Below, in pieces: positions 22,254 through 57,823 of a stretch of DNA of 64,000 nt; positions within the stretch are counted from its first letter, which is position 1; each line of letters starts with the position of its first letter. The DNA comes from Clostridiales bacterium (lineage in GTDB: Bacteria; Bacillota; Clostridia; Christensenellales; CAG-314): assembly GCA_003537755.1 (NCBI GenBank), contig DPQS01000029.1, forward strand, positions 27,914-91,913, read 5' to 3'. The position numbers and the translations under genes are program-made. The notes under the pieces were generated by a model. The model saw nothing but the letters and a program-made list of their open reading frames with translations, did no database searches and was not told the origin of the DNA.

Positions 22254-23942
22254 ATGAAAAACACAGTAAAAATCATTTCTTTGTTGTTGTGCTTCATGAT
22301 GGTTTTTGCCATTGTCGCAGGATGTCATCGCGACAATAGTGAAGATCAGAAGGTTGACAAAAGCAAAACGCAATTGTACGTCAAGTACTACAACGGCGGT
22401 TTCGGCGACGAGTGGCTCAACCAACTTTGCGCCGAGTTCGAAGCGATGTACGCCGACGCTCACTTTGAAGAAGGTAAGACGGGCGTACAAATAATGAAAG
22501 AGTTTAACCGCGGGCAGCTATCCGGACCTAACGATATGAAGGGCAAGCCTATCAACGTGTATATGATGGAAAACATCGATTACTACACCTACGTTGCAGG
22601 CGGCACAATGCTCGACTTGACCGACGTGGTAAACGACTACGCCGTAACGGGTAAGGATACGAAGGAAACGGAAACCAAGATTGTCAACAAAATCATAGAT
22701 TCTTACGACGAGTTTTTGAACGTATCCGGTAAGTACTACGCTTTGCCGCTGTTTGAAACGTCAATAAACCTCAACTACGACATCGATATGTTTGAGCAAA
22801 GAGGTTTGTATTTTGCAGAAGGTAAAACCGCGGAAGATTTTACCGAAGCGGACTTTGCGGACGAAAGCAAAATATCCGCATTGTTTATCAACAACGCCGA
22901 TGACGCCCGCGCCAACGGGCCCGACGGAAAACCCGACACAAGCGACGACGGTTTGCCCGCAACGTACAAGGATTTCCGCGCATTGACAATCTACATGAAG
23001 ATTACCGGCGTAACCCCGTTTGTATGGAACGGTTACGAAACAGGCTATCTTACCGGTCTTATCAACGACATGTGGGCAAACAACGAAGGTGCGGAGCAAA
23101 TGAAGCTCAACTTCACGTTTGACGGCACGGCAAAAACATTGGTCGAACTTGACAACAACGGAAAAGTCGTCAGAAACGAGGACGGAAGCGTCAAATTGGC
23201 AAATGAAACCACCGTTAACGAAGAAAACAAAAACCTTTTGCAATTGCAAAAAGGCAAACTCGACGCAATGGAATTTGCCAAACTGTTGCTTGACGACGGC
23301 TTGGGCAACAAAAACAGTGCAAACTACTACTCCAAGTCTTTTGACAGCGGTTTCAGCAATATCAATGCACAAAACTACTTCCTGGATCCCGACGGAAACA
23401 ACGTAGATCCTATCGGATTTCTTGTTGATGGCGGATGGTGGTACAACGAGGCAAAGGTGCCCGCCGACCGCAACATCGGTATTTTGCCCCTGCCCAAAAC
23501 GGACGCAAACCAAATCGGCAAACCTAATACCAAGGTGTCCGACCGATCGTCATTTATCTTTGTAAACAACGAAACGACTGCGGCGGTGCAACCCGTTGCC
23601 AAGGCATTTGTAAGTTTCCTTCAAAGCGATTACGCAATGGAAACCTACACCAAGTACACAAATACCTTCCGCGCAATGAAGTACGACTTGTCAACGGAAA
23701 CGCTCAACGTGATGAGCGCGTACGGCAAAAGCGTCTACGCAACTCGCAACAGCGACGATACGACCGTTTTGCCATGGACGCCGATTTCGCAAGTGGCGCG
23801 CAAAAACGCAAGTTTGCTCAGTTACCGCACGTATGGTTTCAGTGTAAACACGCAGGAAAACAATCCGCTGATTTACTTCAAAGATCACGCCAACGCAACT
23901 GCGGTAAGTTACTTCGAGACAATCTGGAATTTCCGTAAGTAG
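22254..23942 (+). CDS. Large (~560 aa) ABC substrate-binding lipoprotein (LplA-like class)
   Basis: I prefer the start at 22254 (AAAGGAG SD; MKNTVKIISLLLCFMMVFAIVAGC carries a lipobox). It is followed by two permeases. It is a paralog of the frameshifted gene at 42462. Confidence 0.85.
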   Translation: MKNTVKIISLLLCFMMVFAIVAGCHRDNSEDQKVDKSKTQLYVKYYNGGFGDEWLNQLCAEFEAMYADAHFEEGKTGVQIMKEFNRGQLSGPNDMKGKPINVYMMENIDYYTYVAGGTMLDLTDVVNDYAVTGKDTKETETKIVNKIIDSYDEFLNVSGKYYALPLFETSINLNYDIDMFEQRGLYFAEGKTAEDFTEADFADESKISALFINNADDARANGPDGKPDTSDDGLPATYKDFRALTIYMKITGVTPFVWNGYETGYLTGLINDMWANNEGAEQMKLNFTFDGTAKTLVELDNNGKVVRNEDGSVKLANETTVNEENKNLLQLQKGKLDAMEFAKLLLDDGLGNKNSANYYSKSFDSGFSNINAQNYFLDPDGNNVDPIGFLVDGGWWYNEAKVPADRNIGILPLPKTDANQIGKPNTKVSDRSSFIFVNNETTAAVQPVAKAFVSFLQSDYAMETYTKYTNTFRAMKYDLSTETLNVMSAYGKSVYATRNSDDTTVLPWTPISQVARKNASLLSYRTYGFSVNTQENNPLIYFKDHANATAVSYFETIWNFRK

Positions 23943-23957
23943 CGAATGGCAGCGGTT

Positions 23958-24117: not shown

Positions 24118-25059
24118 ATGACAGGACAAAAGTTAAATGCCGCAAGTGCGGTCAAGAAAAAAATGTCCATGAAGAAGAGCGGAACGCTGTTTTACGTAAC
24201 GATGATTGCGCTTCCGCTGTTGCAGTTTGTGATATTCTACGTAATTGTCAACTTCAACAGTATTCTTATGGCGTTTCAGAATTACGACAACTCTACGGGA
24301 AAGGAAGTAATTACCTTCACCTGGGACAACTTTGCGTACTTTTTCAGCGCAGACGTTGTCGCCGACTTGTGGTTGTGTATCAAAAATTCGTTGATGTACC
24401 TTGCGCTCAACGTCTTTGTCGTCATGCCCGTAAGTTTGCTGTTCAGCTACTACGTGTTCAAAAAGTTTCGTATGGCAAAGTTGTTTAAGGTGATTATGTT
24501 TTTGCCCAGTATAGTTTGTTCTACGGCAATGGTCATCTTTTACAAGTACTACGTCAACGACGCTTTAAGCGGTATGTTCGGCGGACCGGTAATCGGGCCT
24601 ACATTCAATGCGCACCAACAAGGCGTGCTTATCGTGTTCTATTTGTTGATGAGTTTTTCGGGCAACATTTTGTTGTACATCAACGCGATGTGTCAAACGC
24701 CCGAATCGGTAATAGAAGCGGCAAGAATCGACGGCGCAAAGGAAGGACAAATCTTCCTGCACGTGGTTGTTCCGCAAATCTGGGGGACGATTGTGTCGCT
24801 ATTAGTCATCTTCTTTGCATGGGTGGCTACCAACCAGGCTTACTTGTTTACCTTCTACGGTTTCAATGCCAACCGTGAGTATCAGACAATAGGCTACTAC
24901 CTGTTCAACATGGTGCAGGACGGCAGATTTACGAGTTCCGCATTGGAACAAAACTACCGCAAGGCGTCCGCGCTCGGGCTGATGCTGACGCTTATTGTCG
25001 CGCCCGTTACCATTCTTGTCCGCAACCTTATGTTGAAGTACGGACCGAAAGAGGACTAA
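24118..25059 (+). CDS. ABC sugar transporter permease (LplB-like)
   Basis: AAAGGGG SD. EAA loop VIEAARIDGAKEGQIFLHVVVPQI. Multi-span membrane profile. Confidence 0.9.
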   Translation: MTGQKLNAASAVKKKMSMKKSGTLFYVTMIALPLLQFVIFYVIVNFNSILMAFQNYDNSTGKEVITFTWDNFAYFFSADVVADLWLCIKNSLMYLALNVFVVMPVSLLFSYYVFKKFRMAKLFKVIMFLPSIVCSTAMVIFYKYYVNDALSGMFGGPVIGPTFNAHQQGVLIVFYLLMSFSGNILLYINAMCQTPESVIEAARIDGAKEGQIFLHVVVPQIWGTIVSLLVIFFAWVATNQAYLFTFYGFNANREYQTIGYYLFNMVQDGRFTSSALEQNYRKASALGLMLTLIVAPVTILVRNLMLKYGPKED

Positions 25060-25071
25060 GGGAGGCGGCAT

Positions 25072-25983
25072 ATGGCACAAACTAAACTTAAAACTTTCGG
25101 TAAACGCAAACTAAGCGTGTTTGAGTTGATTGTCATGGTGTTGCTCATTGCGTACTGTGTTGCGGTTGTGGCGTTGTTGGTGTGGGGCTTTATGGCTTCC
25201 TTCCGTACCGATCAATCGGTGGCGCAACGTCCGTGGGCGATGTTTGAAGATTTGACGATAGACAACTATCTGGAAGTGTTTGACAACTTCAAAACTTTCA
25301 AATACGTAGACGGCGGCACCCGGACGGTTTACTTCGAGGAAATGTTTCTTAATTCGCTGTTGTATGCGGGCGGCGGAGCATTGATGCAAACGTTGTGTAC
25401 GGCAATAGTTGCGTACCTTACTGCAAAGTACGACAACTTGTGCAGCAAAATAGTGCATTACACGGTAATTGTCACGTTGTCATTGCCCATTGTAGGCAAC
25501 CTGGCAAGTATGTTGCAAATATCCAAGGCTTTGGGGCTGTTCGACAACATTGTCGGGTCGTGGATAATGAAGTTCGGTTTCAACAATATCTACTACCTTA
25601 TTTTCTACGCATTTTTCAAAAAAGTCCCGTGGGAATATGCCGAATCGACATTTCTCGACGGCGGCAATCATTACACGGTGTTTTTCCGTATAATGCTGCC
25701 CCTGGCAATGCCGCTTATCGCGACGGTATTTTTGCTTAACTTTATACAGTACTGGAACGACTTTGAAACGCCGTACATGTTTTTGCCCAACCACACAACG
25801 GCAGGCATAATGCTGTATATGTCCATTATAGGCGGCGGCGGATCATGGTCCGGACCAAGCCCCATACCGCTTACTCCGCAGCTTGCGGCGGCGTTTATGG
25901 TGTTTTTGCCGATATTTGTACTGTTTCTTGTGTTCCGCAACAAAATAATGGGCAACTTGTCCGAAGGAGGTATCAAGGGTTGA
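25072..25983 (+). CDS. ABC sugar transporter permease (LplC-like)
   Basis: GGGAGG SD. EAA-like loop YAESTFLDGGNHYTVFFRIMLPLAMP. Confidence 0.9.
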   Translation: MAQTKLKTFGKRKLSVFELIVMVLLIAYCVAVVALLVWGFMASFRTDQSVAQRPWAMFEDLTIDNYLEVFDNFKTFKYVDGGTRTVYFEEMFLNSLLYAGGGALMQTLCTAIVAYLTAKYDNLCSKIVHYTVIVTLSLPIVGNLASMLQISKALGLFDNIVGSWIMKFGFNNIYYLIFYAFFKKVPWEYAESTFLDGGNHYTVFFRIMLPLAMPLIATVFLLNFIQYWNDFETPYMFLPNHTTAGIMLYMSIIGGGGSWSGPSPIPLTPQLAAAFMVFLPIFVLFLVFRNKIMGNLSEGGIKG

Positions 25984-28900
25984 CGACTACAAAACGTATC
26001 GCTTTATTTGTGTTGTGCTTTGTGTTGGTCGCAAGCGTAGTTGCTTTGGCAATTACTTTTGGCGGCGGCTTCAAGGCATATGCTTCGGACGTGTTCGATT
26101 ACGTCGGGACGATAAAAACGGTCAACGGCTCGATTGAAGGCAACAGACGCGGTTTGCGGTTGTACGGCTACGACAGCGGTGTTACGGCAAACTTCAAAAA
26201 CGCGCAAACCGACGTGTTCGGCGCGGAGTTGCAAATCGGCTCGCACGAAGGCAAGAAGGACCTTAAAAAGTATTCGTTGGTATTTACCGACGTAAAAAGC
26301 GGCAAAAGTTTTGCCGTGCAAGTGGTTTCTTACAGCGACTACAACGATGTAGGCGTTGTGTGCAACGGCAACAAGGGCGGCATTGTGTACTACGAACGTA
26401 AAAACGCCGCATACGGAATGACCGCAGGCTACAACGAAGACGGCGTGTATACAAGGTTTACGTCGGCAATCTGCAATCTGACCTTCGATCCGCAAAGTAT
26501 GCAGGTCAGGGTCAAAGCCGACGACGGTAATTTCCGCGTGGTGTGGGACTTTACCAAGCAATACAACGACGGCAAATTGCTTGCCAATGACCTGCCCGTA
26601 TTCGGAGAGTATACCGTATCGATTGTTTTGGACGAGATTTCGGCAAACAGTCGCGGCGACCTGATGGTTTACACCTTCGGCGGATATTCGCTTGCCGACG
26701 AAACGGTGACATATCGTCCGACAATCTTGTTGCAAAAAGGTCTTAAACCGATTGTCGGTAAACAATTTACTTTACCCGTGGCAAAGGTCACGGACGATGA
26801 CGGCAAGGATGCTTCGGACAAAATAACCGCAACGGTGTACAATGCCGACGGAACGGTGCTTGCCGACAACGTAAAAACGTTTATTCCGCAAAATGCCGAA
26901 ACTATATATGTTTACTACAAGTACACGGACGGACAAACGACCGCCGACTTGTGGTACAAAACGCAAGCGATTACAGAAAGCGACATTACGGCAAAGTTCG
27001 ATTACGACGGCGAGTTGCCCGTCAAGGTGGGCGTAGGTGCAAAAATTACGATACCTTCCGCGACGGTTGCTTCCAATGTGCTTGAAAGCGGCAGTGAAGA
27101 GTGCGTCGTTACTGTAAAAAAAGACGGCGTTGCGGTGGACGGCTACCAAAACATACCGGACGGATTTGTGTACGAAGTCAAGGAACAAGGCAACTACGAA
27201 GTAATTTACGGCGGAAAGACATCTGCCGTGTACAAAACGGATACAAAAACATTTACCGCGGACGAAAAAATGCTTGCGGTAAACGTGGATGCTGTGGAGG
27301 AGTTCGCTTACGGGGCAACGTACAAATTGCCCGTTGCGGAGTTCTGTTTGGGTACAAACAAAACGGAAGTAAATGCAACCGTAACGTATCCTTCGGGCAA
27401 GCAAGCCGACGGCACAATTGCTCTTGACGAAGCAGGCAAGTATACGGTAGGCTACAGTGCGACAATCGACGGAGCAAATTACACGCACGAAGAAACTTTT
27501 GTTGTCAAATTGCCCTATGCCGACAACTTCGACGGCAATGCGGAATATGCGCAAATGCGCGGCAACAATGAGTTTAAGGGCGTCAGACTGTCGCTTGCAA
27601 ACAACCAAACCGTGACATACAACAAGGCTATCGATTTGTCGGATTACACATTTAACGCCGCTACAAACAAGGGCAAAACTCTCCTGGAACTCAACCTCGA
27701 CCCAAAGACAATCGGGTCTGCCGACATCGATTCGCTTTACGTCGTGTTTACCGACAAGTACGATTCGACCAATTACTTCTCGGTGCGCCTGAAGTACTTG
27801 TCGTATTCTCCGCTCAGCACTTTCATTCGTGTACGGTCGAGCAATCAGGCAAGCTGGGTCGGGTACAACTACGACTTTTATTCCTCTGCTCTTCGCGTCG
27901 ATGCGGCGGCGGTGCACGAAGAGGGCGGATTTATCTCGTCTGCATCATTTACTCACAGGCTTGACGAATACGACTTCGGATACGGCTCTTTGAAACTTTA
28001 CTTCGATTACCGGACAAAATGCCTGTATTCGCAACCGTTGTGGCTTACGGGACACAACGACGGCGCTCACCCCGAGTACAACTCGCGCAATGTTCCGTGG
28101 CTTGTGTACGATCTGGACAGTTCCGACAACACGTTGTCCGCAGGTAACAAGCCGTGGGGCGGTTTTACTACGGGCGAGGCATATGTCAGTGTTTATGCCA
28201 AGGGCGTAAGCAGTACGGCGGACGTGTTTATGCTGAACATCGGCGGCGAAGACCTGACAACTCCGCTGTTTGACGATACAAAAGCTCCGACAATTACCGT
28301 AGACGTGGACAAAAACAACGTCCCGTCTGCAAAGGTCGGTTTGCCATACAAAGTGTTTGATTTTACGGCAATCGACGCCGATTCCACAGTGGTAAACAAG
28401 GGCGTTACGGTAACAAACAACGCAACGGGCAAGCAAGTTGCGCTTGACGACAACAATTGCTTTACGCCGATCGAGGGCGAGTACACGCTTGCCTACTATG
28501 CCGTGGACGCATTCGGCTACCGCACCGAAGAAATAATCAACGTAAAGGCAAGTCGCAACGTAGAAACCCCGCAAATTACCGTTTCCGACGGATTGCCGCG
28601 GACAGCTTACTACGGGCAGACAATCACTCTTGCCGATTGCCTGATTACAAAACAAGGTGCAGGCAATGCAGTTGTCGATGTAAAGGTAACTTGCGGCGAC
28701 GTCGAAGTGCCCGTGACAAACGGTAAATTTGTTTGTCTGGGCGCAATCGGAACGTACAACGTTGTTTACACCGTTACCGACTACATCGGTCAAACGGCGC
28801 AGGTAAAGAAGAAAATCATCGTGTCGCTGAGCGACGAATTGCAGTTTGATGAACAGACAATCAGCCTTCCCAAGGCATTTATGCATGGCGACAAGGTGTA

Positions 28901-30206
28901 TTTCGGCGAGTACTCGGCGGTGTACTATGACGCCGACCTGAAACAAATCACCGTGCCTGCAACAATCAGTGTAACGGACGGAGGCGGTACGACTACTGTC
29001 GGTAAAGGGCAAGCCTACACACCTGCCGCAACGGACAGTGTGACGACGGCAAAGGTGGCAATCACATTTGTCGCCGACGGTAAAACGAAAACTATCGAGC
29101 GGGTAATACCCATACACACGGCCAAAAACGGCGACGACTTCATTCAAAGTTACTTTGTGTGCGACAACGCAACGCCGTTTGCAAACAGCAACGGTCTGAC
29201 CTTTGCAAGCTCCGACGGACAGATGAGCTTCTCGTTCGTTCGTCCCGTGTATGCAAGCAATATGATGCTGCGCTTTGTGGCGGACGCAAACAAATTTGCC
29301 GCAAAACGATTCAATGTTGTGTTGACCGACAAATTTGACGGTAAAAAGCAAGTCGCGATTTCCTACACGTTGCAAAGAGGCGTATGGTATTGCTCAGTAA
29401 ACGGCGGAGATGCCGTGGAAACAAGTCTTGACGGCGACGGATATTTGCAACTTAACTACAACAATGCGTCGCATGTGTTTACGGACGGCAACGGACAAGT
29501 GCTCGGCACGGCAGGCGAAATAAACGGTGCAACTTTCAGCGGATTTGAAAGCGGCTACGTTTACGTTGACTGCGCGGTTGAAGGTATCGAGGGCGAAACG
29601 GAAGTCGGCTTGCGTACAATCAACAATCAGACGATCAACAGCGTCAAGCGTGACATGCAGCGTCCTTACGTCAAGGCAGACGGCAAGTACGAAGGCAGGG
29701 TTGCCGCAGGCAGTACCGTCACTTTGCTGTCCGCAACGGCTTACGACGTACTCAACGCTATCGGCGACATCACCGTCAGCGTAAAACTCGGCAACAAAAT
29801 CGTGCTTGAAGAGCAAACTCTTACGGCAGGCAAAAAATTTACCGTAACCGAGTGCGGAACATACACGATTACGTACAAAGTAACCGATTCCGCAAAAAAT
29901 CCGGCTACCGACAAGATAGAGTTTGCCGTGTACGATCCCGTCAAGCCAACGTTGAGTTTCGACGGCGAAATCGCAAGTAAAGCAAAAGTCGGACAAAAAA
30001 TCGATTTGCCCAAGTACACGATAAACGACAACAATCCCGACGGCGTAAAGGTGTATGCGTACATCATGTCGCCCGACGGAACCAAGACAAAAATCGAAGG
30101 TGACACCGTAACATTTTCACAAAAAGGCACATACGTATTAACTTTTTTGGTAACGGACGAACACAACAACGCAACCATGTACAGGTTTGCGGTAACGGTA
30201 AAGTGA
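25980..30206 (+). CDS. 1408-aa secreted Ig-rich protein (conserved N-terminal domain plus many DUF5011/HYR-like Ig repeats)
   Basis: I place the start at the TTG at 25980, with GAAGGAGG 10 nt upstream, overlapping the permease stop (TTGA). The track start 25845 would run through the permease gene. The N-terminus TTTKRIALFVLCFVLVASVVALAI..AYA is a signal or anchor. Repeats follow the pattern D..APTI.V...G.YT..Y.V.D. It is a paralog of 46059..50114. Confidence 0.8.
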   Translation: MTTTKRIALFVLCFVLVASVVALAITFGGGFKAYASDVFDYVGTIKTVNGSIEGNRRGLRLYGYDSGVTANFKNAQTDVFGAELQIGSHEGKKDLKKYSLVFTDVKSGKSFAVQVVSYSDYNDVGVVCNGNKGGIVYYERKNAAYGMTAGYNEDGVYTRFTSAICNLTFDPQSMQVRVKADDGNFRVVWDFTKQYNDGKLLANDLPVFGEYTVSIVLDEISANSRGDLMVYTFGGYSLADETVTYRPTILLQKGLKPIVGKQFTLPVAKVTDDDGKDASDKITATVYNADGTVLADNVKTFIPQNAETIYVYYKYTDGQTTADLWYKTQAITESDITAKFDYDGELPVKVGVGAKITIPSATVASNVLESGSEECVVTVKKDGVAVDGYQNIPDGFVYEVKEQGNYEVIYGGKTSAVYKTDTKTFTADEKMLAVNVDAVEEFAYGATYKLPVAEFCLGTNKTEVNATVTYPSGKQADGTIALDEAGKYTVGYSATIDGANYTHEETFVVKLPYADNFDGNAEYAQMRGNNEFKGVRLSLANNQTVTYNKAIDLSDYTFNAATNKGKTLLELNLDPKTIGSADIDSLYVVFTDKYDSTNYFSVRLKYLSYSPLSTFIRVRSSNQASWVGYNYDFYSSALRVDAAAVHEEGGFISSASFTHRLDEYDFGYGSLKLYFDYRTKCLYSQPLWLTGHNDGAHPEYNSRNVPWLVYDLDSSDNTLSAGNKPWGGFTTGEAYVSVYAKGVSSTADVFMLNIGGEDLTTPLFDDTKAPTITVDVDKNNVPSAKVGLPYKVFDFTAIDADSTVVNKGVTVTNNATGKQVALDDNNCFTPIEGEYTLAYYAVDAFGYRTEEIINVKASRNVETPQITVSDGLPRTAYYGQTITLADCLITKQGAGNAVVDVKVTCGDVEVPVTNGKFVCLGAIGTYNVVYTVTDYIGQTAQVKKKIIVSLSDELQFDEQTISLPKAFMHGDKVYFGEYSAVYYDADLKQITVPATISVTDGGGTTTVGKGQAYTPAATDSVTTAKVAITFVADGKTKTIERVIPIHTAKNGDDFIQSYFVCDNATPFANSNGLTFASSDGQMSFSFVRPVYASNMMLRFVADANKFAAKRFNVVLTDKFDGKKQVAISYTLQRGVWYCSVNGGDAVETSLDGDGYLQLNYNNASHVFTDGNGQVLGTAGEINGATFSGFESGYVYVDCAVEGIEGETEVGLRTINNQTINSVKRDMQRPYVKADGKYEGRVAAGSTVTLLSATAYDVLNAIGDITVSVKLGNKIVLEEQTLTAGKKFTVTECGTYTITYKVTDSAKNPATDKIEFAVYDPVKPTLSFDGEIASKAKVGQKIDLPKYTINDNNPDGVKVYAYIMSPDGTKTKIEGDTVTFSQKGTYVLTFLVTDEHNNATMYRFAVTVK

Positions 30207-32176: not shown

Positions 32177-33586
32177 ATGGCAAAGAAAACAAAAATTATT
32201 CTGATTTGCGCCGCCGCTTTGATTTTGGCAGCGGCAATAGTAACAACGCTGTGTCTGGTGCTTGCCAAGCCGTCCGAAGAAACACCGACGGACAAAACGA
32301 CAATCAGCCTTAACGTAAACGCTTACGCGCTTACCGAAGACGAAACGTTTACAATCGCCGCAACGACCAACTCTACGGACGTAATCAAGTGGACGTCGAG
32401 TAGTCCCGAAGTGGCGTCGGTGTCGTCGCAAGGACGTGTAATAGCAAAGACGGCGGGTGAAACGACAATCACGGCAACGGTTGGCGACGTGTCCGACAGT
32501 TGCAGGGTGCAGGTTGTTGCGGACAATGCGCAAGCGACAATCAAACTTGCTCAGACTACGCTGCGGTTGTCGGTGGCAAGCGGCGCAATGCAAATACAAG
32601 GCACGGTTGTTGGCGGCGACAGTCAACAAACGCTTGCCGAGGCGGGTGCGACTTACGAAACGGACAATGCGTCGGTTGCAACGGTTTCTGCCGACGGCAC
32701 GGTTACGCCGATGTCTGTCGGAAGTACGCTGGTGTTTGTGTCGGCAAACGGTCGCACTAAGACGGTTGCGGTGGAAGTGTACACAATGCTTGTTTCGACC
32801 GCCGAGGATTGGAACGTCATGTTGGGTTTGCCCGGCAACCTTGCGGCACGTTTCTACGTAACAAACGACATCGATTTTTCCGGCGTGACATACAATGCAA
32901 AGACTAATAACGGCGGCGACGTACTGCTCAGTCAAAGTTTCTGCGGTAGTCTTGACGGCGGCGGACACACGATAAGCAACGTTACGTTTGACAGTGCCGT
33001 TTCGTCGCAGTCGCTGTTTGGCACAATGGTGGGTTGCACGCTTACAAACATTGCTTTCAGTAACATTCACTTTACCGCAAGCGGAGCGGCAGGATTGGCA
33101 ATACGAGTTTTGCAACACTACAATGTTGCCGACGAAAACGGCAACGCTACGAGGGAGTTACTGTTTGCTCCGTGCTACGTTACAAATGTTTTCGGAGATT
33201 TTGTCTACGATTACAACGGCGTAAGCGGCATTACCGGCATTTACTACGGCGGCGGTATGGAAAACGTGTTTGTAAATATGCGTATGTCCGACGGCAGCGC
33301 ACTAAACAAAACTACCGATTTTGCCGTTGCAAAGCAAAGCATGATTTGGTCGATGGCGGACCCGAACTGGTTTCCCAACAACTATCTCAACAACGTCGTT
33401 GTCCTTGCCGAACGCGGAGCGGTAAACGCCGCGTGGGACACGACATACGACGGAGCGGGCTTGACAATAAGTCTGTCGGGGCTGCACTGCGTAACTACAA
33501 AAATGGAAGCGGGTTACCTGGTGCGTACGCTGTTTGACAACAATATGTGGACGGTAACGCCTGGACAATTGCCTGAACTGAGATAG
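32177..33586 (+). CDS. Membrane-anchored or secreted protein with two Big_2 Ig-like domains and a GLUG-like / beta-helix-like module
   Basis: N-terminal hydrophobic anchor. Big_2 pattern: W.SSSPEVASVSSQGRVIAKTAGETTITATVG. Then TAEDW...NDIDFSG....FCGSLDGGGHTISNVTF. Confidence 0.75.
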   Translation: MAKKTKIILICAAALILAAAIVTTLCLVLAKPSEETPTDKTTISLNVNAYALTEDETFTIAATTNSTDVIKWTSSSPEVASVSSQGRVIAKTAGETTITATVGDVSDSCRVQVVADNAQATIKLAQTTLRLSVASGAMQIQGTVVGGDSQQTLAEAGATYETDNASVATVSADGTVTPMSVGSTLVFVSANGRTKTVAVEVYTMLVSTAEDWNVMLGLPGNLAARFYVTNDIDFSGVTYNAKTNNGGDVLLSQSFCGSLDGGGHTISNVTFDSAVSSQSLFGTMVGCTLTNIAFSNIHFTASGAAGLAIRVLQHYNVADENGNATRELLFAPCYVTNVFGDFVYDYNGVSGITGIYYGGGMENVFVNMRMSDGSALNKTTDFAVAKQSMIWSMADPNWFPNNYLNNVVVLAERGAVNAAWDTTYDGAGLTISLSGLHCVTTKMEAGYLVRTLFDNNMWTVTPGQLPELR

Positions 33587-42193: not shown

Positions 42194-42461
42194 TTAATTC
42201 TGAACACTGTTTCGATATATCTTCCAAAATTAAGTAACGTTTCCAAAATGTTGAAAACATAACTGTTTAATTTGCCCGAAATATGAATATTCGAGACAGC
42301 TTGAATATGCTACAATATCTTTGGGGAGTTGTACCCTGAAGGCTTTTTGTGCCGTGTTTTGCGAAAAAGGCATTGAATTACAGTGTTTTACTGCCGGTTT
42401 TGCATACTAAAAGCAATCCCAAAATCGGTATTGTCATCTACAAACAATGTGGAGGAAAACA

Positions 42462-50114: not shown

Positions 50115-52024
50115 ACAAGATCATCAGGCTGACAAGCGTAATTCTGGTATTGATGTTTAGTTTGACTATGCTATTTGCTTGTACCGATAACAATGGCAAC
50201 AAGCCGACCTACGAGGAAGATCCGGGCAAAACGCTGACGGAGACAAACATTCTGTTGGCAAACAACGGAACAACCGACTACAAAATCGTCCTTCCCGAAA
50301 ATCCCCAAAAGAAGGAACTTGTGGCGCGTAACGAACTTGTCGAGTTTCTCGGCAAGGCAACAGGCGCAACCTTTGCCGTTGTCAGCGACAACGGATTGAC
50401 ATTCAATCCGCAGGATAAGTACATCTCTGTCGGCAACACCGAGATTCTTGCCACAAGCGGCGTCGCGGTGGAGCAAGACAAACTTACTTCCGACGGATAC
50501 CGCATTGTCACCAAGGGCAACACGGTAATTATTGCCGGTCCGTCCGACTACGGAACACTGTACGGAGCGTACGCTTTTCTCAATTGGCAAATAGGTTTCG
50601 AGACCTACGCCGAGGACGAAGTGTACTACGAAACGAAAACGCAACTCAAGTTGTTGAAATTCGACGAAACGGAAGCTCCCGACTTTGAAAAACGCCAACT
50701 CGGTTACTACACGGCGTGGTCCATCGACAGTTACCGCGACCGTCTGCGCGTGGAACGCCACGGCAAAGACTGGATTTACGGCTCGCACAGTCACTTTACC
50801 ATTATGCCCAAGGGAACCTACTACGCGCAACACCGCGATTGGTACAGCTCGGACGGTACGCAACTGTGTCTTACCAACGAAGAAATGCGCAAGGAATTTG
50901 TTGCGCGGTTGAAGTACATCATTTCTTCGCACCCCGACGAACACTACATTCTGTTGGGCGCCGAGGACGTCAACTCGTTCTGCTACTGTGACAACTGCAA
51001 AAAGGCAATAGCCAAGTACGGCACGGAAAGCGGCGTGGACATGGTGTTTGTCAACAAGGTCGCGCGCGATATCAACGCGTGGCTGGAACAAACCGACCCC
51101 GATCGCTTCATCTACATCGGCACGTTTGCTTACAACAAGACAATTCCCGCGCCTGTCAAAAAGAACGCCGACGGCGAGTATGTCCCCACTCACGTGGACG
51201 TGGTTGCCGAACCGAACGTATTTATCTACTTTGCTCCGCTCGGAGCCAACTTCAGCTACGGTTTCCTGGACGAGGAACACAATTCCGAAATTGCCCAAAG
51301 CATGTTAGGGTGGAAGGTTATCTGTCCGACATTCTGCATCTGGACATACAGTGCAAACTTCTTCAACTATTTTACCAACTTCAACAATTGGGGCACTCAG
51401 GCCTTGCAATACAGGGAGTTGAAAAGTGTCGGCGGTAAGGTTATCTTTGACATGGGTACATGGGACACGGCGGCTCCGTCGTTTGAACGTTTGCGCTCTT
51501 ACGTCACGGCAAAGCTGATGTGGGACACCGAAGCCGACACTCAAAAACTTATTGCCGACTTCATGCAGCACTACTACAAGGATGCGGCGGAGTACATGAC
51601 AAAGTACTACGATCTGATGCGTTCCTACCTTGAAGTAATCCGTGTGGAAAACAACATGGATGCCACCTGCTACGTCAACTACAACAATGTCAAGTACTGG
51701 TCGAAAGCCTACGTTGATACGTGCATGAGCTACTTCGAACAAGCACTTGCCGCAGTGGAAAAGTACAAACAAAGCGACCCGACGTTGTACGAATCGTTGA
51801 CCAAACGAATAAAAATGGAAAAGTTGTCCGTTTTGTTTGTCGCATTGCAACATTACCAACAAACATACACCCCGTCGCAACAAAAGGCAATGATTGACGA
51901 GTTTGAAGAAGTGGCAAAGGCAAACAACGTTATGTATTGGCACGAACACACCAATCTGGCGCAAGGCGACGACGGCGCGGTGGACAAGCGCATCAATGCA
52001 TGGCGGCTGTCGATAGGTGAGTGA
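50111..52024 (+). CDS. DUF4838-like lipoprotein (paralog of 30220..32175)
   Basis: ATGA overlap with the upstream gene. Lipobox TMLFAC. Blocks: LLANNGTTDYKIVLP....ARNELVEFLGKATGATFAV and CYCDNCKKA. Confidence 0.7.
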   Translation: MNKIIRLTSVILVLMFSLTMLFACTDNNGNKPTYEEDPGKTLTETNILLANNGTTDYKIVLPENPQKKELVARNELVEFLGKATGATFAVVSDNGLTFNPQDKYISVGNTEILATSGVAVEQDKLTSDGYRIVTKGNTVIIAGPSDYGTLYGAYAFLNWQIGFETYAEDEVYYETKTQLKLLKFDETEAPDFEKRQLGYYTAWSIDSYRDRLRVERHGKDWIYGSHSHFTIMPKGTYYAQHRDWYSSDGTQLCLTNEEMRKEFVARLKYIISSHPDEHYILLGAEDVNSFCYCDNCKKAIAKYGTESGVDMVFVNKVARDINAWLEQTDPDRFIYIGTFAYNKTIPAPVKKNADGEYVPTHVDVVAEPNVFIYFAPLGANFSYGFLDEEHNSEIAQSMLGWKVICPTFCIWTYSANFFNYFTNFNNWGTQALQYRELKSVGGKVIFDMGTWDTAAPSFERLRSYVTAKLMWDTEADTQKLIADFMQHYYKDAAEYMTKYYDLMRSYLEVIRVENNMDATCYVNYNNVKYWSKAYVDTCMSYFEQALAAVEKYKQSDPTLYESLTKRIKMEKLSVLFVALQHYQQTYTPSQQKAMIDEFEEVAKANNVMYWHEHTNLAQGDDGAVDKRINAWRLSIGE

Positions 52025-52032
52025 GGTGCAAC

Positions 52033-54834
52033 ATGAACAAAAAATTACTACTCGTATTGATGTTTGTTTTGTGCGTGACGTTGTTGTGCGCATGCAAACC
52101 CACCGATGACAATCCGCCTGATCCTGCTCCCGACAAAGTGGAAATTACTCTGTCGGCGCAGCAATTGGAATTGGAAATGGGACAGTCTGCGACCGTCACA
52201 GCAACGGTCAGCGGTAGCGAAGAAGTGCCTGTATGGACAACATCCGCGGCGGGCATTGCAACGGTCAGCGGCGGCAAGGTGACAGCTGTAGCGGATGGCT
52301 CCGCGACAATCACGGCAACGATCGGAGACGTAGCGGCGACTTGCGTTGTTACCGTCAACTCGCACGAAACGGTCACCCTCGACCGCACCGCATTGAGATT
52401 GTTTAAGGGCGAAAGCGTCAAAGTGGGCGCAACGGTAAAAAGGGGGCTTGTCGAACAACAAGTTGCCGTCAGTTACAGCGCGCAACCCGAAGGCTACGTG
52501 ACCGTGGACGACGACGGCGTCGTCACGGGTGTAAAAATTACCAAGTCGCCCGTAACGGAAGTGTTGCTTACGGCAACAACCGCCAACGGTACCACAGCCA
52601 CCTGCACCGTTACGGTGGAAGAAGTTGTGGTAATCAATCTGTCGCAAACCGAAGTCACTTTGCATCCGAACGGACAAAATTCCGCCCGTATCGAAGTCAG
52701 CGGCAAAAAGGGACAATATGCTCTCAATGCCGCTTCGGTAGAGTGGACAAGCAGCAACCCCGACATAGTCGAAGTAAAAGTCGATTCCAAGGGGGCAACT
52801 CTTACGGCAAAAAAGAGCGGAGACGTAACGATCACCGCAAGCGTGGCTGGCTCGTCCGAAGTGGCTGTGTGCAACGTTGAAAGCTGGTACGCACTGTCGA
52901 CGCCCGCCGACATGGAGTACATGCGCACGGATATAAACGGCGTGTTTAAGCTCGTCAGCGACATCGACTTCGGCGGTAAGGCGTGGGACGGCGTTACCAA
53001 ATGGAAAGGCGACGGAATCCCCGACAGCGAGTATTTCGGCGGCACGCTTGACGGACAGGGCTACGCAATCAAAAACATCAACATTTTGTCCGGTTGGAAC
53101 AACGGCATTATCGGTCAGACCAACACCACAAGCGTAGTTCGCAATCTGTCGGTCATCAATCTTGTCAACCAGGACACAAGCAACAAGGTAGGCAGCGTTG
53201 TTTCCTTTAATAAAGGTCTGATAGAAAACTGCTACCTGGAAAACACCATTCAAAGCGACAGTCAAAGCAACTGGAACAGTCACGGCGGCATTGTTGCCAC
53301 CAACGCGCAAACGGGCATAATACGCAACTGTATCGTGCGCGTGACGGCAAGCCGCGCCTACAACAACGCGGGAGCCATTGTCGGCTACAACTGCGGTGTA
53401 ATAGACAATTGCTACGCCATTTGTACCGAAGCGAGGTTGCCTTTGTACGTAGAGTGGAGCAATTCTCTCGGTACCATTACCGATTGCGGCGTGTATACAA
53501 GCGTCGCCGACTTCGTAAGCGGCGCACAACTGCACACTTTTTCCGACAAGGTGTGGACAAACACGGGCTTGGACGTACCGTCGCTGTACCACTACCAAAG
53601 TGTGTCGTTTGACAAAGATACTTTGTACTTTGCGCAGGGTCGTCGTTACAACATCAACCCCGCCAACGTGACGGGAGCAGAGATGCAGTGGCAACTCGCA
53701 GGCGACGACGGCGCACTTGTGTGCGAGCAAAACGCCGACAATTCTCTGAATTTCTTTGCGCGCAAAAAGGGCGTGGCAAGGTTGACCGTCAGGCTTGCCA
53801 ACGGATCTACCGCCGGCGTAAACATTGTAGTTACCGGCGTTGTGATTTCGCCCGACGTCGAAAACGTCAGTCTGGACTACAACAATCCGTCTCTTTCCGA
53901 CGAAAAAGCCATTCGATTGTTTGACGAACAGGGCAACGAGATTACACAGCACCTGACCTTTACTACCACCGACGATCGCGTTGCAACTGTTGGCGAAAAC
54001 GGTGTAATCACCGCTGTCGGCGCAGGAAAATGCTTTATTAACCTGCGTTACATCGATGACGACTATATGCAGTTTGTCGCGGTTGACGTTACGGGTTGGC
54101 AACAAATCTCCACGCCTCAGCAGTTGCAGGCGATGAAGGACAACTACAAACTTAACTATTGCCTTGTCAACGACATCGATTTCGGCAACAACGTGTTTAC
54201 CACCATTACCAAGTGGACGGCGACGGACAGCGACGAATTGTACTTCTCGGGCATCTTCGACGGCAACGGTTACTCTGTCAAAAATGTCAGGATTGTCGGC
54301 AACGACAGCGGTATCTGGGGGCGTACGGCAACCACGGCTGTAATACGCAACACCGTGTTTGACAACATCGAGTTTGCGCCGTCAGGCAACAACACGATTG
54401 CCAACACGTTCGGGGTTGTTTCGTTCAATACAGGCACCGTGCGCGATTGCATTGTAAAAGCCAAATTCAACGTCGGAAACACAACCGACTACCGTACGGG
54501 CGGAGGCATCTGCGGCAACAACGAGTTCCGCGGGCGTGTGTACAACTGCATTTCCTATGTGGACGCCTCGGCAGTAACCGGACCCGAAAACTACGTCGGT
54601 GTGCTGTTCGGACTGTGTCAGGGCGTTGCAAAGGATTGTATAGGCATTGTCGTCGGCAACACGACGGCAACCGTAAATGCAATTTCGTTTATCAACAGCA
54701 GCGGTGTGTCGGCGTGCAAACACTTTGCATCCGAGCAAGCCGCAGTGGCGGAGTACGCGCCTTTCGGTTCGTTTTCGACGGCGGTGTGGAACGTGTCGGA
54801 TACAAGACTGCCTGTGTTGCGCCATTTGTTTTAA
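52033..54834 (+). CDS. Lipoprotein with multiple Big_2 Ig-like domains and two GLUG-like / beta-helix-like modules
   Basis: I prefer the start at 52033 (GAGGTG SD; lipobox TLLCAC). Big_2 pattern: W.TSAAGIATVSGGKVTAVADGSATITATIG. Modules: SDIDFGG...YFGGTLDGQGYAIKNINI and NDIDFGN...YFSGIFDGNGYSVKNVRI. Confidence 0.85.
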   Translation: MNKKLLLVLMFVLCVTLLCACKPTDDNPPDPAPDKVEITLSAQQLELEMGQSATVTATVSGSEEVPVWTTSAAGIATVSGGKVTAVADGSATITATIGDVAATCVVTVNSHETVTLDRTALRLFKGESVKVGATVKRGLVEQQVAVSYSAQPEGYVTVDDDGVVTGVKITKSPVTEVLLTATTANGTTATCTVTVEEVVVINLSQTEVTLHPNGQNSARIEVSGKKGQYALNAASVEWTSSNPDIVEVKVDSKGATLTAKKSGDVTITASVAGSSEVAVCNVESWYALSTPADMEYMRTDINGVFKLVSDIDFGGKAWDGVTKWKGDGIPDSEYFGGTLDGQGYAIKNINILSGWNNGIIGQTNTTSVVRNLSVINLVNQDTSNKVGSVVSFNKGLIENCYLENTIQSDSQSNWNSHGGIVATNAQTGIIRNCIVRVTASRAYNNAGAIVGYNCGVIDNCYAICTEARLPLYVEWSNSLGTITDCGVYTSVADFVSGAQLHTFSDKVWTNTGLDVPSLYHYQSVSFDKDTLYFAQGRRYNINPANVTGAEMQWQLAGDDGALVCEQNADNSLNFFARKKGVARLTVRLANGSTAGVNIVVTGVVISPDVENVSLDYNNPSLSDEKAIRLFDEQGNEITQHLTFTTTDDRVATVGENGVITAVGAGKCFINLRYIDDDYMQFVAVDVTGWQQISTPQQLQAMKDNYKLNYCLVNDIDFGNNVFTTITKWTATDSDELYFSGIFDGNGYSVKNVRIVGNDSGIWGRTATTAVIRNTVFDNIEFAPSGNNTIANTFGVVSFNTGTVRDCIVKAKFNVGNTTDYRTGGGICGNNEFRGRVYNCISYVDASAVTGPENYVGVLFGLCQGVAKDCIGIVVGNTTATVNAISFINSSGVSACKHFASEQAAVAEYAPFGSFSTAVWNVSDTRLPVLRHLF

Positions 54835-55030: not shown

Positions 55031-57823
55031 ATGAAAAGAAAATTGATTGGCACATTGTTGGCGATTATGCTTGTGGCTTCGTTGTTTGCGCTTATCGCAT
55101 GCGAAAAACCCGCCTACAACGTAACCGTTACAGAAAGTGCGCACGGCAAAGTGACGGCGGACCTGTCTACCGTTACCGCCGATGGCAGCGTAACGCTTAC
55201 CGTAACGCCCGACGAAGGCTACATGCTTGACGAGCTTAAGGTAAACGACGCCAAGGTTGACGTTACCGGCAACACCTACGTTGTTGCAAACGTGTCTGCC
55301 GACGTAACGATTACGGCAACATTCAAGGCTGTTACCGTGACTGTGTCCTTTAACGTTGCGCCCACGCAAAGCAAACAAGTAACCTACGGCTCTGTTTACG
55401 GCGAACTGCCTGCTCCCGTCGGACAAACCGGACAACGCTTTGTCGGTTGGTACACGCAGGAAAACGGCGAAGGAACCAAGGTGGAAGCTACAACCGCCGT
55501 TACCGCAACGAAAGACCACACCTTGTACGCATTGTTCACCGACAAGTACCTTGTAACGTTCAACTACACTTCGGGCAGCGGTCGCGAAGAAACTCGTCTT
55601 GTTGCGTACAACACGGCAATAGGAGACTTGCCCACCGTTCAGCCGCCTGTGGCAAGCATATTGTACGGATGGTTTGTCGGCGAAACCAAGATTGATAAGG
55701 ATTACCTTGTTACCGATGACATCACGGTTACGGCAAGCTACATTACGGCAGAACTGTCTCTTAAACAAGGTTCCGGCACTACTGCAATCGCAGGCTTTGC
55801 CGAAGCCACCGACAACAGCTACCCCGAAGTGAATGTAGTTGTCAAAATCGACGGCGAAGTAAAGGAAGTTGCCGTTACGTTGGAAACCACCGACAGCGCA
55901 ATTGCTACAGTCGACGGCGGCAGAGTTACAGCCGTTGCCGACGGTGAAGTGCAAATCATTGCCAAGTACAACGGCGAAGAAATTGCCCGTCTCGATGACA
56001 AAATCACATGTCGCAGTTATGCCGGCTACACAGCCGTTGCCGACAAGGCAGGTTTCCTTGCAATCAAGGACAACAAAGCAGGCAAGTACTATCTTACAGC
56101 CGACATCGACCTGGAAAACGCGGCAATGTGGGACGTAGACAACGGCTACAAGCCCCTGTTCGATGTGTTTACGGGCGTAATCGACGGTCGCGGCCACAAA
56201 GTAAGCAATGCGGTTGCTCACCCGTCGGGTTGGTTCCAGGGTATGTTTACCGAAATGAAAGGCGTAGTGCGCGATATCGCTCTTGTCAACTTCTACACGG
56301 AAACAGGCAAGGCTGCCGGTAACGGTGTGTTCGGCAACGTCAAGGGACTTGTGGAAAACGTGTATCTCGATTACAACGTTCGCTTCTCGGGCGTTCAGGA
56401 AAACCACGCGGTTGCGCCGCTTGCTTCCTATGTGGAAAACGGCGGTATTCTCAGAAACATTGTTGTCAACATGCGTACCGCAAGCAATCAATACGTTGAC
56501 GCGGCGGCGATTGCTTTCTCCGCACAAAGCTGGGGCGGCAAGGTGGAAAACGTATTTGTAATGACAAACGGCAAGTCCGTATCGGCAACAATCAGCGGCG
56601 GCTTGTACTACAAGGAGGCAGCAGAAGGCGTCGGCGACGGAATTACCAAAAACAGCGGAACATATCTGTACACTTACAGTATGCTTAGCAGCGAAACCGA
56701 GGACATCACCAAGCTCGATTCGTCGGTGTGGTCGGTACGTGAAGGCGCAGTGTACTTCCACAACACCCTTGCTCTTGCGCCTACTCCGGAGTACGACATT
56801 GTGTACAACGGCGGCAACATCGTCAAGGAATACGAAACAGAACTGCCTACTGCGGAAATACTCAACATTGTATTTTTGCATAACACGGCAAAGATGGACG
56901 AAGTGCCGACGGGCGCAACCTTTACTTCCACCAAGGAAGATGTTGCAATTGTGGGTGTAGACGACGAAGGCAATGTGTTTGTCCGCTACAACGGCGCAGG
57001 CACAACCACAATTAAAGTCACAATCGGCGAAGTGGAAGTGTCTTTTGACATCACTCTCAACCAAATCGTTCACATCGCATCGGCGGAAGATCTTCGCACC
57101 AAGATGCCCACCAGTCTTAACAGCGTAATAGTACTTGACAACGACATCGATTTGCAAATGAGCACGGTTAAGGGCGGTGACGATTGGAGCAGTTTCGGTA
57201 CATTTACCGGCACGCTTGACGGACAAGGACACAAGATTTCCAATTTCTACGTAGGTAATGGTTGGAGCGGCGGCTTCTTCTTCGCCATGAAAGGTACTAT
57301 CAGAAACATCGCTTTTGTCAATGTAAACAGTCCTTCCGTAACGGCGAATACCGCCAACGGATTGTTTGCTACGCTTGACGGCGGTGCCGTACTGGAAAAC
57401 GTGTACATCGATTACGTGTTCAATGCAAACGGCAGTGTAATCGGCAGTGACCTCAACTATGTTGCCGCAGGACCGGTTTGCGGACCTATATTCTCGGCAA
57501 CGGTAAACAACGTAATCATCAACATTCGCTTCAAGGAAGGTTTCGACTTTGCCAACATCGACAAAATCGGCGCAATCACTGGTAAGGCTTGCTCCTGGGC
57601 GTCAAAGGTGAGTAACGTCAAGGTTATCGTCAACGCGGACGTTAATCTGAAACTCTCTTACGCCGACGCGGTAGAAAACGACGGCGTTCAGAAAACGTGG
57701 ACAAACTGCGCGACATACACAAACTACGCCGCGCTAAAAGCAAGCGATTTGTCGGCGTTTAACGCAAGCGTGTGGAATTTTGCCGACGACGGATTGACCT
57801 TTGGCGAAAACAAAGTACTGTAA
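55031..57823 (+). CDS. Lipoprotein with InlB-B/Listeria-Bacteroides (Flg_new) repeats, a Big_2-like domain and two GLUG-like modules
   Basis: AAGGAG SD. Lipobox FALIAC. Y.VTVTESAHGKVTAD....VTLTVTPDEGY.LDELKVN. F.GWYT.ENGEGTKV...T.V....TLYA.F. Modules: ADIDLEN...FTGVIDGRGHKVSN and NDIDLQM...FTGTLDGQGHKISN. Confidence 0.85.
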   Translation: MKRKLIGTLLAIMLVASLFALIACEKPAYNVTVTESAHGKVTADLSTVTADGSVTLTVTPDEGYMLDELKVNDAKVDVTGNTYVVANVSADVTITATFKAVTVTVSFNVAPTQSKQVTYGSVYGELPAPVGQTGQRFVGWYTQENGEGTKVEATTAVTATKDHTLYALFTDKYLVTFNYTSGSGREETRLVAYNTAIGDLPTVQPPVASILYGWFVGETKIDKDYLVTDDITVTASYITAELSLKQGSGTTAIAGFAEATDNSYPEVNVVVKIDGEVKEVAVTLETTDSAIATVDGGRVTAVADGEVQIIAKYNGEEIARLDDKITCRSYAGYTAVADKAGFLAIKDNKAGKYYLTADIDLENAAMWDVDNGYKPLFDVFTGVIDGRGHKVSNAVAHPSGWFQGMFTEMKGVVRDIALVNFYTETGKAAGNGVFGNVKGLVENVYLDYNVRFSGVQENHAVAPLASYVENGGILRNIVVNMRTASNQYVDAAAIAFSAQSWGGKVENVFVMTNGKSVSATISGGLYYKEAAEGVGDGITKNSGTYLYTYSMLSSETEDITKLDSSVWSVREGAVYFHNTLALAPTPEYDIVYNGGNIVKEYETELPTAEILNIVFLHNTAKMDEVPTGATFTSTKEDVAIVGVDDEGNVFVRYNGAGTTTIKVTIGEVEVSFDITLNQIVHIASAEDLRTKMPTSLNSVIVLDNDIDLQMSTVKGGDDWSSFGTFTGTLDGQGHKISNFYVGNGWSGGFFFAMKGTIRNIAFVNVNSPSVTANTANGLFATLDGGAVLENVYIDYVFNANGSVIGSDLNYVAAGPVCGPIFSATVNNVIINIRFKEGFDFANIDKIGAITGKACSWASKVSNVKVIVNADVNLKLSYADAVENDGVQKTWTNCATYTNYAALKASDLSAFNASVWNFADDGLTFGENKVL

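Follow-up and report, generated by a model that had tools for sequence, protein, structure and literature searches.

Why an uncultured gut bacterium should carry two long, similarly ordered clusters of surface-protein and sugar-import genes close to each other, and what these clusters do, are the questions raised by a stretch of 64,000 nucleotides (nt) from Clostridiales bacterium (Christensenellales, CAG-314; assembly GCA_003537755.1, contig DPQS01000029.1, positions 27,914 to 91,913 of the forward strand), referred to below as the window. The genes of the two clusters are named A1 to A7 (cassette A) and B1 to B7 (cassette B), and loci found elsewhere are named L001, L018 and so on. It is reasonably likely that the cassettes are two paralogous operons of the Gram-positive polysaccharide utilization locus (gpPUL) type, which capture, trim and import glycans containing N-acetylhexosamine (HexNAc) and mannose, probably N-glycan-like ones. 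Their conserved core consists of a binding lipoprotein, two permeases of the carbohydrate uptake transporter 1 (CUT1) type, a giant protein with many immunoglobulin-like (Ig) domains, a DUF4838 lipoprotein and a Big_2/GLUG protein, and it is followed by a variable seventh lipoprotein. The genes of cassette A and then of cassette B are as follows.

22233..23942, + strand: A1, solute-binding lipoprotein of 569 amino acids (aa) with the lipobox VAGC, preceding two permease genes and 30% identical to B1
24118..25059, + strand: A2, ABC permease, BPD_transp_1 (Pfam 1.3e-9)
25072..25983, + strand: A3, ABC permease, BPD_transp_1 (Pfam 2.1e-9), whose stop overlaps the A4 start
25980..30206, + strand: A4, the giant, 1408 aa, secreted or N-terminally anchored
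30220..32175, + strand: A5, lipoprotein (FVGC) with a GH67N/GH20b-like N-terminal domain and a DUF4838 TIM-barrel (Pfam DUF4838 1.4e-45)
32177..33586, + strand: A6, N-terminally anchored, two Big_2-type Ig domains and one GLUG-type module (Pfam Big_2 1.9e-12)
33703..37086, + strand: A7, lipoprotein of 1127 aa, Cadherin-like beta-sandwich repeats and three C-terminal repeats of ~130 aa (Pfam Cadherin-like 3.5e-18)
42447..44112, + strand: B1, disrupted solute-binding lipoprotein gene, which reads as 389 aa and 170 aa
44221-45141, + strand: B2, ABC permease, BPD_transp_1 (Pfam 1.5e-13)
45145-46062, + strand: B3, ABC permease, BPD_transp_1 (Pfam 3.2e-16)
46059..50114, + strand: B4, the giant, 1351 aa, 26-27% identical to A4
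50111..52024, + strand: B5, lipoprotein (LFAC) with a GH67N/GH20b-like N-terminal domain and DUF4838 (Pfam DUF4838 4.4e-53)
52021..54834, + strand: B6, lipoprotein, Big_2 and two GLUG-type modules (Pfam Big_2 6.7e-14)
55031..57823, + strand: B7, lipoprotein, Flg_new (Listeria-Bacteroides) repeats and two GLUG-type modules (Pfam Flg_new 9.3e-11)

All 14 open reading frames (ORFs) of the original prediction are present on the + strand at the lengths given there; B6 probably begins at the ATG at 52033, which gives 933 aa as in its L018 orthologue, and not at the GTG at 52021. That prediction had the cassettes matching gene for gene, in the same order, along all seven positions, which is true of six pairs (BLASTP E 3e-12 to 4e-99, 26-42% identity) and not of A7/B7. 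In the all-vs-all BLASTP comparison, A1/B1a match at E 9e-47 (30% identity), A2/B2 at 4e-61 (38%), A3/B3 at 1e-77 (42%), A4/B4 at 2e-57 (26% across 1062 aa), A5/B5 at 4e-99 (30%) and A6/B6 at 3e-12 (31% across 182 aa, with more module matches), while A7/B7 give no match below 1e-3. When A7 and B7 are run directly against each other, their lipoprotein signal peptides alone match (E 0.002), which makes the two genes counterparts in position and not homologues. Judged from these alignments, the six pairs are genuine paralogues, and the surface lipoproteins encoded at the seventh position are unrelated to each other. A 26-nt and a 41-nt match are all that blastn detects between the two cassettes, in agreement with the claim that extended DNA identity is absent. 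The duplication is old, as had been proposed, since the pairs are 26-42% identical without DNA identity and B4 has its own orthologue in other samples (P0156, 86% identical). After this long divergence the two cassettes probably serve different glycans. The overlap between the second permease gene and the giant gene, also noted before, reads GGAGG-N8-TTGA at 25980 and GGAGG-N8-ATGA at 46059, and recurs in L001, L003, L018 and L024.

The three genes for the giant, the DUF4838 protein and the Big_2/GLUG protein, suspected earlier of travelling together, co-occur with the transporter genes in nearly all related loci. When 185,579 species genomes were searched with A-type peptide patterns, A-type cassettes turned up in 12 species, all of them metagenome-assembled genomes of uncultured Clostridia/Firmicutes that apparently come from human-gut studies (Hadza, Nepal, HGM, UMGS); the carriers are uncultured Clostridia of human-gut metagenomes, Hadza and Nepali samples included. 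A metagenome scan with the motif [PLS]WxGFTTGE, from the D2 domain of the giant, gave 71 loci. Synteny was counted with a hidden Markov model for each cassette family across 96 scanned loci, which contain 71 giants after removal of redundancy at 90% identity. About 90-97% of evaluable loci keep the order binding protein, permease, permease, giant, DUF4838, Big_2/GLUG. The second permease is directly upstream of the giant in 59 of 61 loci, both permeases precede it in 51 of 53, and both permeases together with the binding protein in 37 of 39. On the other side, DUF4838 is directly downstream of the giant in 44 of 47 loci, and the giant is followed by DUF4838 and then the Big_2/GLUG protein in 37 of 42. 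A contig from another organism (ERZ1106932 NODE-46; L046 and L072, also L045) has two complete cassettes separated by ~15.5 kb, with 32-48% identity between their members, in an arrangement that mirrors A and B. The presence of two diverged copies side by side thus recurs.

The enzyme of the core is the DUF4838 protein. This domain, once listed as having no characterised function, is the catalytic domain of glycoside hydrolase (GH) families GH163 and GH185, both distantly related to GH20 (PMC10570127; PMC10154615). The founder of GH163, BT1035, is a surface endo-acting enzyme which cuts the N-acetylglucosamine (GlcNAc)-β1,2-mannose linkage in complex N-glycans and releases N-acetyllactosamine (PMC10570127; PMC10154615), whereas GH185 is a 6-sulfo-GlcNAcase with O-glycan-like structures as its target (PMC10570127). 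Both A5 and B5 have the DUF4838 catalytic TIM-barrel, and the B5 match spans profile positions 2-325 of 325 (PF16126). Among 46 non-redundant cassette DUF4838 homologues, which are 23-90% identical to A5, six residues are invariant (D291, in IGHEDN, N320, Y346, W416, Y434 and E591), consistent with an active A5-type enzyme. A5 has no sequence relative in the PDB. A5 and B5 are best described as putative beta-N-acetylhexosaminidase-like glycosidases, of CAZy family GH163, GH185 or another. Orthologues of A5 are 73-77% identical in the orthologue comparison, as against 52-55% for A4 and 45-50% for A6; the enzyme is the best conserved member, and the surface proteins evolve faster, a pattern typical of exposed binding proteins.

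The giant is the largest member of the core. A4 starts with a signal or anchor, followed by domain D1 (37-245), three Ig domains, D2 (512-764), three Ig domains, D3 (1040-1222) and two Ig domains, and repeat mapping counts eight Ig repeats. In the Ig map of B4 the plan is similar, with D1, two Ig domains, D2, three Ig domains, D3 and two Ig domains. D1, D2 and D3 are paralogous domains of ~200-260 aa (hhalign probability 89% for D1-D2 and 96.7% for D2-D3). Besides weak Ig matches, A4 and B4 have no Pfam or PDB sequence match, and the isolated D1, D2 and D3 have no Pfam match even at E<=5. With 81 sequences as input, AlphaFold2 (AF2) models D2 at a predicted local distance difference test score (pLDDT) of 96.7 and a predicted template modelling score (pTM) of 0.93. 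When this model is compared with the PDB by Foldseek, legume lectins are the best matches (E 2e-4 to 1e-2, probability 0.85-1.0), followed by GH16 glucanases, so D2 is predicted to have the ConA-like lectin/glucanase fold, as are D1 and D3 by their homology to D2. The D2 beta-sandwich matches sugar-binding lectins of the legume lectin/ConA-like superfamily, including an archaeal legume-lectin domain (7elv). Compared with legume lectins, its identity is 8-11%, and the giant embeds the domain three times in a 1400-aa Ig array. The residues T591, D592, N598, D676, D711, W726, G728 and F729 are conserved in D2 throughout the family, and the T-D...N...D...D pattern among them resembles, by analogy, the metal or sugar site of lectin-like sandwiches. 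From the predicted fold and the gene context we infer that the giant may capture glycans.

The giant family is uncharacterised and its three domains are unannotated. An exhaustive phmmer search with residues 1-1200 of A4 gave 778 cluster representatives at E<=1e-3, of which 336 reach E<=1e-30, and was used in place of a word-index homologue search, which recovered only 19-26 giants. The family includes forms of ~1400 aa and forms of ~1000 aa without D1. One A4 homologue, P0001, is 99% identical and represents 475 member sequences. In L048 (1848-5780) and L053 (2162-6136), an extra giant of ~1310 aa immediately precedes a complete cassette and has neither a permease gene in front of it nor a DUF4838 gene behind it. 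L096 has two tandem DUF4838 genes after the giant, and in L056 the giant has no following DUF4838 gene.

The sixth protein combines Big_2 domains with a module of ~280 aa, which according to BLASTP and its motif (DIDF..F.G.LDG.GH.I.N in A6) occurs once in A6 and twice each in B6 (motifs at residues 339 and 742) and B7. The first module of B6 scores 25.4 bits against Pfam Glug PF07581, above the cut-off of 20.5, and B7 has a weak Peptidase_M26_N match; the module is named GLUG-type for these reasons. The modules of A6 and B7 and the second module of B6 have no direct Glug match and are linked only by BLASTP (E 1e-5 to 2e-12) and the shared motif. The GLUG modules of streptococcal M26 IgA1 proteases and of large Firmicute surface proteins share the motif F.G.(L/F)DG.G(H/Y).(I/V).N, followed by short N(I/V)-containing repeats. 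Unlike in the M26 proteases, the module in the cassettes has no protease domain with it, is joined to Big_2 or Flg_new, and belongs to a sugar-import operon. The GLUG module has no established function. In the AF2 model of A6, a transmembrane helix (2-28) is followed by two confident Ig domains; a fold search with this model gave Ig matches only, and B6 and an A6-family profile found only Big_2 domains among PDB sequences. The seventh gene varies across relatives, being Cadherin-like, GLUG-containing or absent, and A7 is conserved in A-type loci only. All non-permease cassette proteins carry a lipobox or a signal anchor. The surface proteins have no cohesin or dockerin Pfam matches and no C-terminal LPXTG with a hydrophobic tail; no arrangement of the cellulosome/amylosome or sortase-anchored type was found. 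At least 120 separate entries are A6 variants, 86-99% identical and mostly single-member, which together with the 475 members of P0001 suggests that the lineage is common in the gut and highly diverse in its A6 alleles.

Each cassette has two BPD_transp_1 permeases, as expected of a CUT1-type system, and a binding-lipoprotein gene, and thus the transport part of a gpPUL. The permeases have weak UgpA/UgpE/MalG/GlcU-type matches in NCBIfam. A1 had been called LplA-like, a name that its profile matches do not confirm: it has no Pfam match, its one binding-protein match in NCBIfam is of the NgcE type and weak (2.5e-8, far under the cut-off), and a PDB sequence search gave no useful match. The lipobox and gene position of both A1 and B1 fit a solute-binding protein, and the gene equivalent to A1 in L020 matches SBP_bac_1. 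The frameshift reported in B1 is real, being a 4-nt tandem duplication of TATG at ~43599-43602 relative to the intact orthologue (L018:290-1939, 549 aa, 90.7% identical DNA). The same lesion is present in L025, a contig from a different sequencing run, possibly not an independent sample, which is 100% identical across 20.9 kb. Copy B has therefore lost its binding protein in this strain, and the earlier statement that both copies have been maintained is untrue for it. Broken binding-protein genes were also seen elsewhere. The A1 orthologue of a 98.5%-identical strain (L029:4742-6451) has a nonsense change, Q380* (CAA>TAA), and the binding-protein ORFs of L017, L036 and L058 are split. The L017 and L036 cassettes are near-identical, with giant, permease, DUF4838 and Big_2/GLUG ORFs of equal length, and their splits are at different positions. 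Altogether five binding-protein genes are split compared with two giants and one permease, and assembly error in low-coverage contigs is possible.

The genes that flank the cassettes, assigned mainly by Pfam, provide regulators and further enzymes.

17022-18230, + strand: GH29 alpha-L-fucosidase (Pfam)
18227-18871, + strand: GDSL esterase (Pfam)
18873-19934, + strand: GH130, upstream copy (Pfam)
20110..20976, - strand: AraC-family regulator, cupin/AraC_binding and HTH_18 (Pfam HTH_18 9.9e-21, HTH_AraC 5.4e-14)
21167..22240, + strand: GH130 beta-mannoside phosphorylase-like protein, cytoplasmic (Pfam Glyco_hydro_130 8.4e-56)
37172-39082, + strand: GH20-like protein, cytoplasmic (Pfam)
39101-40501, + strand: GH1, cytoplasmic (Pfam)
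41042..41977, + strand: ArsR/SmtB-type helix-turn-helix regulator, 311 aa (Pfam HTH_5 1.5e-9; NCBIfam)
57997-59991, + strand: DUF4964/DUF5127/GtaA six-hairpin ('glutaminase A'-like) protein, cytoplasmic (Pfam)
59976-61820, + strand: GH20, cytoplasmic (Pfam)
61961-63406, + strand: GH32, cytoplasmic (Pfam)

As predicted, the regulators are of different types, with an AraC gene near cassette A and an ArsR-type gene near cassette B. The AraC gene is divergent from the cassette A operon and has a perfect sigma70-like promoter at 21005-20977 on the - strand. The A-type operon starts with the GH130 gene at 21167..22240, which shares 8 nt with the start of A1 and is conserved ahead of the A1 orthologues. 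A hairpin on the + strand (42149-42185, a 15-bp stem followed by T8) separates the ArsR-type gene from B1; no terminator-like site in 40-60 kb is stronger, and the ArsR-type gene is therefore probably transcribed apart from cassette B. The GH29, GDSL esterase and GH130 genes are also found upstream of the A-type cassettes in L007 and L013, the GH20-like and GH1 genes follow the A7 orthologues in L001, L013 and L014, and a six-hairpin gene (L019:13857-15812) and GH20 follow the B-type cassette of L019. Among 118 ORFs that flank cassettes at 59 loci, Pfam identifies AraC 17 times, GH130 11, GH20 9, GDSL 6, GH2 5, and GH1, GH78, GH29, ROK and ArsR 3 times each. DUF4838 in A5 and B5, flanked by GH130, GH20, GH29 and GH1, provides the enzymes of a gpPUL, with their activity predicted, and the AraC and ArsR-type genes provide its regulator as far as presence goes; both types are listed for gpPULs (Sheridan et al. 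2016, PMC5320581). By predicted gene content, both loci fit the gpPUL definition of enzyme, transporter and regulator.

Gene content, homology, synteny, predicted surface signals and the D2 fold prediction are the observations from which we infer the steps of a mechanism. The surface-held giant and Big_2/GLUG proteins would bind a HexNAc/mannose glycan of host or diet, most likely an N-glycan-like one, and the DUF4838 lipoprotein would cut the bound glycan into oligosaccharides. The binding lipoprotein would pass these to the permeases, powered by an ATPase encoded elsewhere, and the cytoplasmic GH130 phosphorylases, GH20, GH29, GH1 and the GDSL esterase would complete the breakdown. The AraC regulator would govern cassette A, and the ArsR-type regulator cassette B. 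The N-glycan-like nature of the substrate is suggested by the recurrent partnership of GH130 with GH20 and by the GH163 precedent; GH130, GH20 and fucosidases are known enzymes of the N-glycan core and antenna (PMC10154615).

Several observations weigh against this mechanism. No GH18 or GH85 endo-beta-N-acetylglucosaminidase, sialidase or alpha-mannosidase (GH18, GH85, GH33, GH38 or GH92) was found in the window scans, and a full N-glycan pathway would need such enzymes. The best NCBIfam model for the GH130 protein is beta-1,2-mannobiose phosphorylase, under the cut-off, and some related loci have GH78 or GH94 instead, and members of the family therefore differ in substrate. Neither A1 nor B1 has a binding-protein match in Pfam, and no ABC ATPase domain occurs in the scanned window ORFs (>=150 aa); in Firmicutes, an MsmK-type ATPase encoded at a distance is often common to several CUT1 systems. 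In the termini that were read, the giant has no lipobox, LPXTG or C-terminal anchor to hold it on the cell. The geometric match of D2 to its PDB relatives is weak (template modelling score 0.33-0.48), GH16 glucanases (1gbg, 1u0a, 3d6e) are among these relatives, and the GLUG module of A6 is modelled poorly (pLDDT <60 past residue 300), which is attributed to a shallow alignment of 86-99% identical variants. The missing enzymes and the varying accessory ones make the substrate uncertain; the two copies probably have different ones. It is possible, if on balance unlikely, that the architecture is as described and each cassette serves some other mannose/HexNAc polymer, such as acetylated beta-mannan, fungal beta-1,2-mannoside/mannoprotein, chitooligosaccharides, mucin O-glycan or bacterial exopolysaccharide. 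Besides the GH130 model and the absent families, this would accommodate the GDSL esterases and GH1, the GH32 and GtaA-like six-hairpin proteins after cassette B, the GH78, GH94 and GH2 genes near relatives, and the O-glycan-like 6-sulfo-GlcNAc target of the DUF4838-bearing GH185 (PMC10570127). However, DUF4838 of the GH163 type, GH20, GH29 and GH130 are the set described for N-glycan breakdown (PMC10154615), and GH130 and GH20 are the commonest catalytic neighbours in the family as a whole.

The role of the giant is open to other interpretations as well. Because GH16 glucanases match D2, a catalytic role is conceivable, in which one or more of the ConA-like domains act as, for example, a GH16-like endo-glycanase or transglycosylase and the DUF4838 protein is a secondary, exo-acting enzyme. 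D2 does have four invariant acidic residues (D592, D676, D711 and E733), and a HEEGGF stretch is conserved in A-type members, but this stretch is not conserved in B-type or distant members, and the GH16 motif ExDxxE was not seen by eye in the family consensus sequences, for which no motif search was made. Since, in addition, lectins outrank glucanases in Foldseek, a triple domain repeat with Ig spacers is typical of binding arrays and the conserved pattern of D2 would suit a lectin-like metal or sugar site, an enzymatic giant seems improbable. Still less probable is that the giant, the Big_2/GLUG and the seventh proteins are adhesins or envelope scaffolds which are co-regulated with the transporter and hand over no substrate. 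Ig, Cadherin-like, Flg_new and GLUG modules are indeed common in adhesins and S-layer-associated proteins, and the surface proteins diverge quickly; on the other hand, their order and adjacency with the permeases and DUF4838 hardly vary even among proteins with as little as 23-30% identity, the giant gene overlaps the permease gene translationally, and the neighbours are almost all carbohydrate-active enzymes and sugar regulators. That the two cassettes reflect chance juxtaposition, recent segmental duplication or an assembly artefact has a negligible probability. The unrelated A7 and B7 and the frameshifted B1 might suggest it, but six pairs match significantly without DNA identity between A and B, each cassette has its own orthologues elsewhere, and synteny is kept in dozens of loci. 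The adjacency of A and B was also assembled in the contig from a different run (L025), and a second contig has tandem diverged cassettes. These three explanations were rejected by blastn, the other-run contig and the synteny counts.

Among known systems, the gpPULs of Roseburia/Eubacterium rectale (PMC5320581) are similar in combining a degrading enzyme, an ABC sugar importer and a regulator, with cytoplasmic GHs that finish the breakdown. Compared with them, the cassettes have a fixed six-gene core, their large surface proteins are separate instead of being carbohydrate-binding modules fused to an enzyme, their enzyme is a DUF4838 protein rather than a classical endo-glycanase, and their host is an uncultured Clostridia lineage. 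The N-glycan loci of Bacteroides thetaiotaomicron of the BT1035 (GH163) type, which are like the starch utilization system (Sus), share with the cassettes a surface lipoprotein enzyme with DUF4838, surface proteins with Ig-like and binding domains (as in SusE/F), a substrate-binding protein that supplies the transporter, and the partners GH130, GH20 and GH29. In contrast to Sus, the cassettes have no SusC/SusD, outer membrane or hybrid two-component regulator and depend on an ABC system for import, and besides DUF4838 their binding proteins have no sequence homology to those of Bacteroides. No SusC (TonB-dependent transporter) or SusD domain was found in the window proteins scanned, and for this reason the cassettes are functional, not homologous, analogues of Sus. 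The suggestion of a Sus-like logic is thus plausible as to the division of labour, given the gene content, whereas the Gram-positive idea itself is already established as gpPULs (PMC5320581). Sp_0475 of Streptococcus pneumoniae, a GH185 6-sulfo-beta-GlcNAcase (PMC10570127), has the same DUF4838 TIM-barrel distantly related to GH20 and is likewise from a Gram-positive organism. Its cluster has no signal peptides and the enzyme is cytoplasmic and exo-acting, whereas A5 and B5 are lipoproteins and have a GH67N/GH20b-like N-terminal domain in addition.

Within the paper library that was searched, none of the papers on DUF4838 describes the cassette, which is a little-studied Gram-positive counterpart of Sus rather than a new principle, the enzyme domain being known. 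The overlap of the permease stop with the start of the giant invites the hypothesis of a physical complex. In this more ambitious and rather doubtful version, the six-gene core would be an undescribed, widespread Gram-positive machine in which the giant docks on the ABC transporter as a multivalent antenna; made in step with the second permease, it would concentrate glycans for the DUF4838 enzyme and hand the products to the binding protein. If true, the core would be a structural and logical counterpart of SusCDEFG, with three new lectin-like domain families and the first function for GLUG. Docking aside, the competition of Gram-positive gut bacteria against Bacteroides for complex glycans of host and diet is far less understood than the Sus paradigm, and a conserved block with hundreds of protein clusters in gut and fermenter metagenomes points to a recurrent surface apparatus on an ABC importer. 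The block offers as targets new DUF4838 specificities (N-glycan remodelling), three unannotated lectin-like domains and a testable role for GLUG.

A few other features of the window are of minor interest. The ORF of 330 aa at 20062-21054 on the + strand is a shadow of the minus-strand AraC gene; it gives tblastn matches of 35-80% identity in orthologous loci and could mislead an annotator. The ORF at 16179-17021 (+ strand, 280 aa) has no Pfam match and a weak match to MusI-family membrane proteins (2.2e-4), and is conserved upstream of GH29 in L007 and L013. A third sugar-import locus occupies 382-15272 on the + strand, with two large lipoproteins, an SBP_bac_1 gene, two permeases, a 1007-aa protein and a GH130. 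Its lipoproteins, at 382-4629 (1415 aa) and 4652-7891 (1079 aa, with a Cys-rich CxxC N-terminus), have no Pfam match, and none of its proteins is related to A4 or B4. The 1007-aa protein, which has no signal peptide, is 34% identical to the 382-4629 lipoprotein over 630 aa.

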